This document shows, one piece after another, positions 22,872 to 25,130 of a DNA stretch of 64,000 bases. Each line of letters starts with the position of its first letter. Position 1 is the stretch's first letter. Source of the DNA: an uncultured cyanobacterium. GTDB lineage: Bacteria; Cyanobacteriota; Cyanobacteriia; Pseudanabaenales; Pseudanabaenaceae. The stretch lies in assembly GCA_963703315.1 (NCBI GenBank), contig OY969811.1, positions 3,360,001-3,424,000 on the forward strand, read 5' to 3'. Below the pieces are notes generated by a model. The model was not told where the DNA came from, did no database searches, and saw only the letters and a list, made by a program, of their open reading frames with translations. The translations under genes and the position numbers were made by a program.

Positions 22872-23093
22872 TATAGGGTTTCACAGTATAGAGAATTGTT
22901 TCCTAGCCAAAGGCTAGGAAACAATTCTCTATACATCGCTTGCTTGAGCCATATTTAAGACAACCCCAAAAGAGAGTTGCATCAATTTGCATCGTAATTC
23001 TCTTTTAGGTGTTAAATAAGTAGACTTAATTAAAGATAAAACCATAAAAGCTGTGGCGGACTCTGCGCGTGTGCCACAGCTTTTATGGTTTTA
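22872..23093. repeat. Three adjacent palindromic elements (one family D, two degenerate)
   Basis: gtatagagaattgtttcctagcc-aaa-ggctaggaaacaattctctatac; aaaaccataaaagctgtggc...gccacagcttttatggtttt. Confidence 0.7.
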
Positions 23094-23658: not shown

Positions 23659-23750
23659 TATAGCAAAGCAAAACCCAAGAAGCGAGTGGCGGCGCGGAGC
23701 TCCGCCACTCGCTTCTTGGGTTTTAGTATAAGCAAAAATTTTTTGTTATA
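23659..23750. mobile_element. Family B palindromic element
   Basis: aaaacccaagaagcgagtggcggcgc-gga-gctccgccactcgcttcttgggtttt; nearly identical to the 10711 copy. Confidence 0.75.
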
Positions 23751-23846
23751 GATGAAGCTCAAAGTACTTCCTAATCTATGACTGTGGGTTTTTGTAATAG
23801 CGATTGCTATAATTAAAATCTCAAATTTTTTAAGTAAGGGCAAGTA

Positions 23847-24140
23847 ATGGCGACTTCTCATAGGACAAAACAGGTAAATCTTCGTTTTCCTCTGCCTTTA
23901 TTGAGCCAAATCAAATCTCAAGCTGATGCTAAACAACAGGCGATCGCTGATTGGATTTTAGCAGTGGTCAGTCGTGAGTTTACCCCAGAACCAATAGCAG
24001 AAAAGCTGTCAGAGAAACCATCGGAACCTACTCCTTTTGTTTTGCATCCTGAACTTCTGGCATATATTGAGACTTGTCTAGCGCCGCTACAGGGACAGAT
24101 TGGTGAACTGAGGACACAACTGGGGGAGTCCAAAGCCTGA
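23847..24140 (+). CDS. Ribbon-helix-helix-like small protein (N-terminal part of a probable frameshifted gene)
   Basis: KQVNLRFPLPLLSQIKSQADAKQQAIADWILAVV fits an RHH/CopG pattern; short coiled coil ending LGESKA*. Confidence 0.7.
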   Translation: MATSHRTKQVNLRFPLPLLSQIKSQADAKQQAIADWILAVVSREFTPEPIAEKLSEKPSEPTPFVLHPELLAYIETCLAPLQGQIGELRTQLGESKA

Positions 24141-25006
24141 TTGATAGTGGGAAATCCAGTCAGGCAGATGTATCTGTCCCTAATCAAAATGATGATCATG
24201 TTGATGCTAATACTTCAAAAGGTTTTTGGTCATCGGCAAATACGAAGCCACTGTTTAATTCATTAGCAGGATTTGCTCTAGAAGTAGGCGATCGCCTGCT
24301 GATCAATGGCGAAGAAGTGATATTTAAAGGGTGGGTCGATCAATCCCAGACAGCGATCGAAGTAAAAGTGATCGCTGATGACGCAGTGCAGGTCAAGCAA
24401 GTTCATGCGAAAGAAATCAAAAGTCTGTCGCGATCGCCGCATATTGCTGATAATTCGTCATCACCAAACCAAACCACCAAACAAGAAGCGAATCAGTCTG
24501 ACCGTACAAAAGTAAATACGCCAGTAAATACACCAGTAAGTGCAACCGACAATGAAGAATCTCCAGTAGCAAAGGCTGAGCAAGAACTTCCAGAAGTAAC
24601 CACGCAGGAAAGCGGCGATCATCCAAAAACGGAGGAAGATGCTGTAAATAGTTCAGATAGCTTGGAAGATACTGCTCAAATAGAAGAATCTCCTGAAATC
24701 CCCCCAGAGCCAGAATACAATGCTTGGGAAGTATGGACTTATTTAGAACGGCAGCGTTTGAAAACACTCAAGTTAATCAATACATTCCATGCGGAATGGG
24801 AAGCAAATCGATTTGTCCGTGAAGCTGAACGGAGTACTCCTCCAAATCTCAGGATACATTACGAAATTCGTCCAGTTTTACTCGATGAAGCTGAGTTAAA
24901 TGGTTCTGCTCCAAAAACTGAAAATTCTCATACATCTCCTGATCAGCAACCTGATGCTGAGGTAGAAGATTATGCTGATGCGATCGATGTGGAGATCATC
25001 AGCTAA
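24107..25006 (+). CDS. Open -1 frame continuing the RHH ORF (acidic hypothetical protein)
   Basis: Frame is stop-free from 24107 to 25006 but has no ATG/GTG/TTG until 24317; it overlaps the end of the upstream ORF. Confidence 0.65.
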   Translation, partial: TEDTTGGVQSLIDSGKSSQADVSVPNQNDDHVDANTSKGFWSSANTKPLFNSLAGFALEVGDRLLINGEEVIFKGWVDQSQTAIEVKVIADDAVQVKQVHAKEIKSLSRSPHIADNSSSPNQTTKQEANQSDRTKVNTPVNTPVSATDNEESPVAKAEQELPEVTTQESGDHPKTEEDAVNSSDSLEDTAQIEESPEIPPEPEYNAWEVWTYLERQRLKTLKLINTFHAEWEANRFVREAERSTPPNLRIHYEIRPVLLDEAELNGSAPKTENSHTSPDQQPDAEVEDYADAIDVEIIS

Positions 25007-25034
25007 AAAGAGAGTTGTGCTGCAACTCTCTTTT

Positions 25035-25130
25035 CGGTTTTAAAAAATGGCATAGCCATTTTTTAAAACCGTTACTGGGTTTGTTTTTTAATTCACGAAA
25101 GTGTGACAACACTTTCGTGAATTGGTGTTA
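25035..25130. mobile_element. Family A double-hairpin element
   Basis: aaaaaatggc-ata-gccatttttt plus aattcacgaaagtgt-gaca-acactttcgtgaatt; uninterrupted counterpart of 34476-34789. Confidence 0.7.

Follow-up and report, generated by a model that had tools for sequence, protein, structure and literature searches.

Organization of the locus

The locus lies on the forward strand of the window, i.e. the whole stretch of 64,000 nucleotides of cyanobacterial DNA that was analysed, and consists of a short open reading frame, ORF1 (23847-24140), and a second frame, offset by -1, that continues beyond its stop codon. ORF1, the short isoform, encodes 97 residues, with an RHH-type N-terminus (approximately residues 5-45), a variable linker, a coiled-coil-like helix (residues 68-91) and an LGESKA end. 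Its 3' end reads CTG GGG GAG TCC AAA GCC TGA, with the stop codon TGA at 24138-24140. The -1 frame opens past a TGA at 24104-24106 (from 24107) and ends with the TAA at 25004-25006; its earliest ATG, GTG or TTG is the GTG at 24317. Counted from the candidate slippery heptamer G_GGG_GAG (24122-24128; Leu wobble G, Gly GGG, Glu GAG) it contains 294 codons (24122-25006) and would encode the C-terminal 292 residues of a 386-residue long isoform. The heptamer is followed by a 6-nt spacer (24129-24134), which is free of stops in the -1 frame, and by a putative stimulatory hairpin (24135-24165), GCCUGAUUG / CAGUCAGGC, whose 9-bp stem (24135-24143/24157-24165) contains the ORF1 stop codon. A possible second stem, which would create a pseudoknot (24149-24180), pairs the loop sequence GGGA (24149-24152) with UCCC (24177-24180), and an SD-like GAGG (24110-24113, within GAGGA at 24110-24114) is located 8 nt 5' of the heptamer. 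The positions given in the first-pass annotation for ORF1, the open -1 frame, the heptamer, the spacer, the stem and GAGGA were all recovered on re-checking. The 9-bp stem is present in four of four folds of the locus sequence, but for this one sequence the hairpin is not significant when compared to shuffles (z +0.41 to -1.49), and the case for frameshifting therefore rests on conservation.

The assignment of ORF1 to the RHH type, also made in the first pass, is borne out by the family rather than by the single protein. The family profile matches AvtR (E 1.5e-5), ParG (2e-5), Mnt (6e-4), CopG and Arc, with two designed helical repeats outscoring these RHH matches; RHH_1 is found in 7 of 40 members and the Arc-like phrog_582 in 9 of 40. 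ORF1 alone matches PF12441 with an E-value of 0.0026, which is below the Pfam cut-off, and its monomer model (pTM 0.26) lacks the ribbon. The tail of the predicted long isoform in this genome consists of a conserved small β-barrel of SH3/Tudor/Sm-like type (24245-24436), which begins 24 codons 5' of the first GTG, an acidic linker and a conserved C-terminal domain (24710-24877; W[EQ]VWxYLERxRxxTL...FxxEWxAxRF...AER...LRVHYE) that is confined to the host's order; a conserved terminal motif, DAIDVE (24977-24994), follows, in which I-D-V-E is invariant in 37 of 37 genus orthologues. The barrel is modelled with a pLDDT of 80-93 and reaches VIA Z values of up to 6.2 against Sm, Tudor, RimP and MscS barrels, of which the best family is not clear. 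For the C-terminal domain, searches of Pfam and PDB sequences, viral contigs and plasmids returned no match, and a viral fold search gave nothing at E 0.001. There are 22 matches among 1.84 billion representatives, and in a phylum-wide draw of 401 genomes the domain occurs only in this genome and one other of the same genus. An Atlas match to SPOR-like clusters (0.77) is regarded as a lead only.

The gene is flanked in the window by menB and by a neighbour that we take to be plsY-like. A possible sigma-70-type promoter, TTGTAA-16-TAAAAT (23792-23819, forward strand), lies 27 nt 5' of the start codon; it comes from a consensus scan alone and is weak, matching at 9 of 12 positions, a score reached by 9 sites against 6.6 expected. 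Three perfect inverted repeats 3' of the gene (25006-25125) may be terminator-like or represent genome-wide palindromic repeats, the summed contig depth being high at 25063-25100. Long near-perfect intergenic palindromes with 12-26-bp arms are found at 22886-22934, 23037-23093, 23670-23724, 25006-25034, 25035-25071 and 25088-25125, and those at 25060-25100 are repeated elsewhere in the genome, as judged by contig depth. Existing annotations list the short form as a hypothetical protein and omit the -1 frame or assign it an arbitrary start.

Conservation of the junction

Single-protein queries detect one copy of both frames in each same-genus genome searched (36 of 36) and no relative in 24 genomes of other families; those are reached by profiles and DNA patterns alone. 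Profile searches detect both frames in 47 of 47 same-genus genomes, and the titled orthologues belong to Pseudanabaena and Tumidithrix, which makes a Pseudanabaena-type host likely. In all 37 loci that were parsed, G_GGG_GAG is invariant and located 16 nt 5' of the stop, the spacer has the same length, and the -1 frame is open over 252-299 codons. The stem is retained in all 37 as well, and the frame offset and G-run, whose conservation the first-pass annotation had proposed to test, hold without exception. Of the six conserved ORF1 columns that use a single codon, four are at the junction, and synonymous change (pS) is 0.22 there, versus 0.60-0.73 across the rest of the -1 frame. Coding conservation also extends 5' of the first GTG, as the proposed fusion implied: pN/pS is 0.13 for the barrel segment, and it is 0.08 for the C-terminal domain. 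In 29 of 37 loci the earliest ATG, GTG or TTG lies downstream of the barrel start, inside the conserved barrel. The fetched flank includes menB in 28 of 37 loci.

Within the genus 98.5% of stem cells are paired (37 orthologues), and the changes are one-sided only; two-sided changes appear only across genera and families. Loop GGGA-UCCC pairing of at least -3 kcal/mol, with UCCC 11-17 nt past the stem, is found in 35 of 37 loci versus 36 of 148 control windows. This second stem was observed in the genus only, with 95% of cells paired and covariation nearly nil, and it is weak or absent in two genomes (G001 and G005), both arms being weakened. Judged from these alignments, the odds that a loop pseudoknot could form are about even. 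The first-pass annotation had also included an internal SD. A GAGG indeed exists at this locus, and anti-SD pairing of -5 kcal/mol or lower is observed in 29 of 37 loci versus 5 of 37 control windows; since, however, 22 of 37 orthologues at most share GAGG itself, and its 8-nt spacing differs from the 9-14 nt upstream given for stimulatory SD elements in the accessible text of PMC5009743, it is accessory at most. A second in-phase heptamer, G_GGA_AAT, 3' of the stop was considered as a shift site and dismissed, as it is not invariant.

In the order's other genera the C-terminal domain was detected in 13 of 23 genomes, and in the whole order in 61 of 71. Eleven parsed loci of these genera have the same -1 offset, with G_GGG_GAG (5), G_GGA_AAG (3) or G_GGA_AAA (3) as heptamer, which in three of the 11 is directly followed by the stop. 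Their stems are altered on both sides (GCCCUGAG/CUCAGGGC, GCGCUUGG/CCAAGCGC). The barrel is missing from several other genera, and the end motif occurs there as DAE variants. The locus L079 of genome G092 was left out of this set: it has G_GGA_AAG and an intact stem, but its -1 ORF is put out of frame by a C10 run, which is likely an assembly indel. In genome G088 an N-terminal domain and the C-terminal domain are contained in one uninterrupted ORF of 495 residues. The N-terminal domains of the G_GGA_AAR genera and of G088 show no detectable similarity to ORF1 (weak NikR match, E 0.07), and the G088 fusion thus backs the logic of joining the two parts, not ORF1 directly. A GGT GAG at its VGELA motif is possibly the fixed read-through of a former shift site. 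The G088 protein (L071:2200-3684, minus strand) and three representatives (P0011-P0014) add to the C-terminal domain a further tail of HTH-like type (LTQxELAxRL...W.Y.P); when long fused relatives were sought, P0012 alone was recovered, which is weak evidence. At L099, a profile match from another family, the same junction precedes an unrelated -1 tail.

A DNA pattern of the junction matched 59 of 401 genomes, 24 of them outside the host family, while the reversed pattern gave 2 matches. Among 31 pattern loci examined outside the order-level set, 14 have an RHH-like ORF1 followed by an open -1 frame; the remainder appear fortuitous. Over 185,579 genomes the pattern returned at least 120 matches. 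Among the matches listed, 80 are titled, and of these the 65 cyanobacterial ones all have the two-frame layout, with GGGGGAA (33), GGGAAAA (21) and GGGGGAG (11) as heptamers; the four other heptamers allowed by the pattern are absent from these 65 and present among 13 non-cyanobacterial matches. The pattern fixed six stem pairs and CTGA, positions that are therefore uninformative, and used a minimum -1 frame of 25 codons, a cut at 40 codons losing the short extensions of Nostocales. To avoid the bias of the fixed positions, a protein profile was searched against 121 genomes of one family (f30), of which 64 matched, with 144 matches in total. The 90 loci that were fetched are biased to high scores and to matches reaching the LG[EK] end of the profile. 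They contain 86 distinct RHH ORFs, 74 with an intact heptamer, 3 with a broken one and 9 with none; a search for further RHH ORFs of this kind had been suggested in the first pass. The 74 intact heptamers comprise 50 GGGGGAA, 11 GGGAAAA, 8 AAAAAAA, 4 GGGGGAG and 1 GGGAAAG, the A_AAA_AAA copies being mostly located 5' of the same stem as the others. Neither GGA-GAR nor GGG-AAR occurs among the 86 ORFs, from which it follows that the Gly wobble base tracks the next codon, as tandem slippage requires. In the 3 broken copies the -1 frame closes after 1 or 14 codons with loss of the hairpin, or is scrambled by an indel.

A stem of at least 7 pairs (by the rule of the script) is present in 68 of the 86 RHH ORFs, and the region 3' of the heptamer folds to a lower energy than the upstream control in 160 of 162 loci (115 distinct junctions). 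Stem covariation, another point raised in the first pass, is seen at pair 8, which is free in the pattern: of 81 pattern loci, 73 can form this pair, a count that kinship inflates, against a shuffle maximum of 53, and it occurs as A-U, C-G, U-A, G-U and U-G. An Rfam search of 10 loci gave no match at the junction. The frameshift signal seen in the first pass is thus real, but the locus, then regarded by itself, is one member of a cyanobacteria-wide cassette.

Cassette-bearing RHH and coiled-coil genes are found in Nostoc, Calothrix, Scytonema, Microcoleus and others, many of them on plasmids or integrated elements. In Nostocales the -1 tails are mostly 25-39 residues long and prolong the coil, the hydrophobic fraction at a/d positions being 0.59 in the -1 frame versus 0.28 in the +1 frame (63 loci); in Microcoleus they are about 110 residues long. 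On plasmids of Nostoc, Fischerella and Gloeocapsa the gene and a series of small genes point away from each other. Of 120 neighbouring genes outside the order most are matchless; those with a match include DUF3854, DUF3987, VapE-like proteins, DUF5906, integrases, TnsD and Bro-N. Nostocales copies (L153, L184, L186, L191, L192, L196, L205, L207, L214, L220 and others) are flanked by a divergent upstream gene and, downstream, by a gene of 300-440 residues or more without Pfam match, and several conserved uncharacterised families recur, at 18, 12 and 11 loci.

Decoding at the junction and alternative explanations

An in-phase slippery motif, a 3' structure at +6 nt and a selected -1 ORF without a start of its own coincide at the junction. 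Taken together, these sequence comparisons make programmed -1 ribosomal frameshifting very probable, and the two products proposed earlier, of 97 and 386 residues with a common RHH end, are backed by conservation, motif swapping and stem covariation. The majority of ribosomes would terminate at the TGA and release the 97-residue RHH/coiled-coil protein, while a fraction would stall at the hairpin 6 nt beyond G_GGG_GAG. There tRNA-Gly could re-pair from GGG to GGG, and tRNA-Glu(UUC) could leave GAG for GGA by accepting a G:U pair at position 2, after which translation would continue in the -1 frame and yield the 386-residue protein. This genome encodes a single tRNA-Glu, with anticodon UUC, and tRNA-Gly with anticodons UCC and GCC; GGG GAG is its least used Gly-Glu dicodon (2.4%). 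ARAGORN also calls a tRNA-SeC (UCA) at G000:C1:2474203-2474296, and SelA, for which the genome was searched, was not found. The spacing agrees with the 5-8 nt given for stimulatory 3' structures, a hairpin or pseudoknot with an optional SD, in the accessible part of PMC4066793.

The first-pass annotation had rightly cautioned that G_GGG_GAG is not a strict X_XXY_YYZ heptamer; it nevertheless interchanges with G_GGA_AAR and A_AAA_AAA as re-pairing predicts. Its further statement that single-tRNA or transcriptional slippage would be required does not hold, as tRNA-Glu(UUC) can make the shift described above. Accordingly the junction peptide it predicted, TQLGG-VQSLID, has a plausible alternative in TQLGE-VQSLID, which tandem slippage would produce, the two candidate junction peptides being TQLGEVQSLIDSGK and TQLGGVQSLIDSGK. 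G:U re-pairing has been proposed for the phage motif GGGGGAA, the sole form of its motif in about a thousand annotated phage sites (PMC10885494, accessible text), and G_GGA_AAG is listed as highly shift-prone in Escherichia coli (PMC5009743, likewise). According to the available portion of PMC4066793, efficient E. coli motifs permit cognate A-site re-pairing, which implies that near-cognate sites such as G_GGG_GAG are weaker. The A-site re-pairing being near-cognate here, the frameshifted fraction is probably a minority. No published experimental test of G_GGG_GAG was found in the literature searched. Contigs of an RNA run (X9) fall on both frames and none of them over the junction.

The G5 homopolymer at the site, the overlap of the hairpin with the stop codon and the C10 run that breaks the -1 ORF of the relative G092 might suggest an assembly error, a recent indel, a decaying pseudogene, or a terminator or attenuator hairpin with an incidentally open frame. 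The offset, however, is identical across all 37 genomes, and independent contigs agree: those of runs X2 and X3, two samples of one study, span the junction in the same frames with 19 and 4 substitutions and no gaps (X1 is identical but may be the source sample). Assembly error is excluded by these comparisons. The -1 frame is moreover under purifying selection, a U-tract is absent 3' of the stem, and the 3' arm of the stem falls in one codon phase at 79 and in another at 36 of 115 junctions, which indicates that RNA structure and open frame are both maintained. Explanations of this kind thus retain almost no probability. As a background, 6592 ORFs of at least 60 residues in this genome, among them spurious ones, were screened. 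A heptamer of one of the observed classes terminates 24; the -1 frame is open in 13 of the 24, and 3 have a hairpin in addition: the RHH locus, one that is terminator-like, and a gene resembling tail chaperones.

Translational coupling would yield a separate ORF2 protein by re-initiation at the CTG (24137-24139) that overlaps the TGA (CTGA), with GGGGGAG serving as an SD 8 nt upstream and the hairpin masking the start until ORF1 ribosomes melt the stem. The 16S tail, GAUCACCUCCUU, together with the GGAG 8 nt 5' of the CTG would permit this, all 37 genus loci retain the CTG, TTG GTG stands in its place in G093 and G094, and coupling and frameshifting may coexist (accessible text of PMC3711429). 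For the family as a whole re-initiation fails, as the heptamer is exchanged for GGGAAAA, GGGGGAA and AAAAAAA, which lack GGAG, the CTG is changed to CTC (L356, L360) or CTA (L365, L375) with compensating 3' changes, and the stop is displaced from the CTGA overlap in G064, G071, G072, L298, L302, L356 and L360. In addition GGAGAR, a good SD, never occurs, ATG takes the place of the CTG in none of the 86 ORFs, and the 25-39 residues of Nostocales are more plausibly a continuation of the coil than a free peptide. Coupling as the explanation is thus highly unlikely, although re-initiation may make a small contribution at this locus. Slippage of RNA polymerase, which would insert a single base into the run of Gs or As and produce a continuous-frame mRNA, is conceivable at the G5 run of this site and at the A7 run of eight relatives. 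Most sites, however, contain only G5 or A3-A4 runs in constant codon phase, the Gly wobble base matches the next codon, and the hairpin has the 6-nt spacing of ribosomal sites; transcriptional slippage fits the A7 copies only and has a very low probability as the general mechanism. Ribosomal frameshifting remains the preferred reading.

Proposed role and relation to known systems

By a slight preference, we propose that both isoforms, through their common RHH end, dimerise and bind DNA, and that they assemble into mixed oligomers whose ratio the shift determines, the long form adding oligomerisation or partner-binding parts. The cassette probably derives from regulatory genes carried by cyanobacterial plasmids and integrated elements; there it would serve to control mobile elements, the isoform ratio determining the oligomer composition. 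The present copy is single, adjoins menB in most orthologues and was detected in all searched genomes of the genus, which points to domestication as a chromosomal regulator. The mechanism is known from G/GT, IS3, dnaX and csoS2, whereas the gene family is apparently undescribed: no description of an RHH frameshift family was found in the literature searched, i.e. the open-access portions of reports including PMC3711429, PMC10272220, PMC3091744 and bioRxiv 2025.06.27.661541. Known cases of -1 frameshifting in chromosomal genes of bacteria are few, and no transcription-factor family is among those found in the literature. With more than 100 distinct junctions, this phylum-wide family and its natural heptamer and stem variants offer ready material for testing whether near-cognate (G:U) slippage occurs at G_GGG_GAR. 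If the isoform ratio tunes a plasmid or prophage regulator, the family is also relevant to cyanobacterial vector design and the control of mobile elements.

By its N-terminal profile matches ORF1 resembles ParG, CopG, Arc/Mnt and AvtR. In the accessible text on RHH repressors, including the cyanobacterial TrcR (PMC10272220) and CorR (bioRxiv 2025.06.27.661541), no frameshifted long form was found described. An RHH antitoxin of a type II toxin-antitoxin pair was rejected as an identity for ORF1, the downstream frame having neither a toxin family match nor a conserved start.

The tail-assembly-chaperone genes of phages (lambda gpG/gpGT; actinophage GGGGGAA) are similar in that a short upstream ORF ends a few codons from a Gly-Lys or Gly-Glu heptamer and is extended in the -1 frame to a product with a common N-terminus, the G/GT shift controlling the ratio (PMC5009743; GGGGGAA in PMC10885494; accessible text of both). 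They differ from the present gene, which has an RHH regulator upstream, a heptamer ending in G and a genus-wide chromosomal position, and is not followed by a tape-measure gene. The junction pattern, run blind on viral contigs, nevertheless returned G/GT genes: of 18 viral matches 3 are tail-chaperone-like and 1 is of RHH type, and L272 and L278 combine G_GGA_AAA, 6 nt and the GCCUGA/UCAGGC stem on PHROG tail chaperones. L268 is likewise a viral gene of tail-chaperone type with these three elements, and the -1 frame of L272 matches the C-terminal part of phrog_2992. ORF1 has no match in PHROG, and profile similarity to the L272 chaperone, the only one compared, was not detectable. Elsewhere in this genome, on the minus strand of G000:C1, a second candidate with G_GGG_GAA and a hairpin (heptamer at 1922142; L380:408-832) comprises a Phage_TAC_7-like ORF of 100 residues (E 1.3e-4, below the cut-off) and a -1 frame corresponding to DUF6760 (E 3.8e-11); it probably encodes a tail chaperone and would belong to a tail-like or contractile-injection locus. 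A portable cassette of heptamer, 6 nt and GCCUGA/UCAGGC stem, perhaps originating from phage tail-chaperone genes, might have been attached to the ends of RHH regulators as a plug-in for -1 C-terminal modules, with a fixed minority ratio and DNA-bound mixed oligomers, the copy in this order now being a core gene with a new domain family; we offer this wider scenario tentatively and regard it as rather less than probable.

OrfA of IS3-family elements is a helix-turn-helix protein. The OrfA/OrfAB arrangement (PMC5009743, accessible text) resembles the present one in that a DNA-binding upstream product is fused by a -1 shift to a longer product; here, however, the upstream product is of RHH type, the -1 frame contains no transposase, as judged by the absence of a Pfam or NCBIfam match, and the gene is present in single copy at a fixed site. 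Cellular genes with a -1 shift are dnaX, copA and csoS2, the last of which is the sole cyanobacteria-linked case of -1 frameshifting noticed in the accessible literature searched. These are chromosomal genes which produce two isoforms with a common N-terminus and have a 3' stem-loop (PMC5009743, as far as accessible), but their shift truncates the product, whereas in the RHH gene described here it would extend it.
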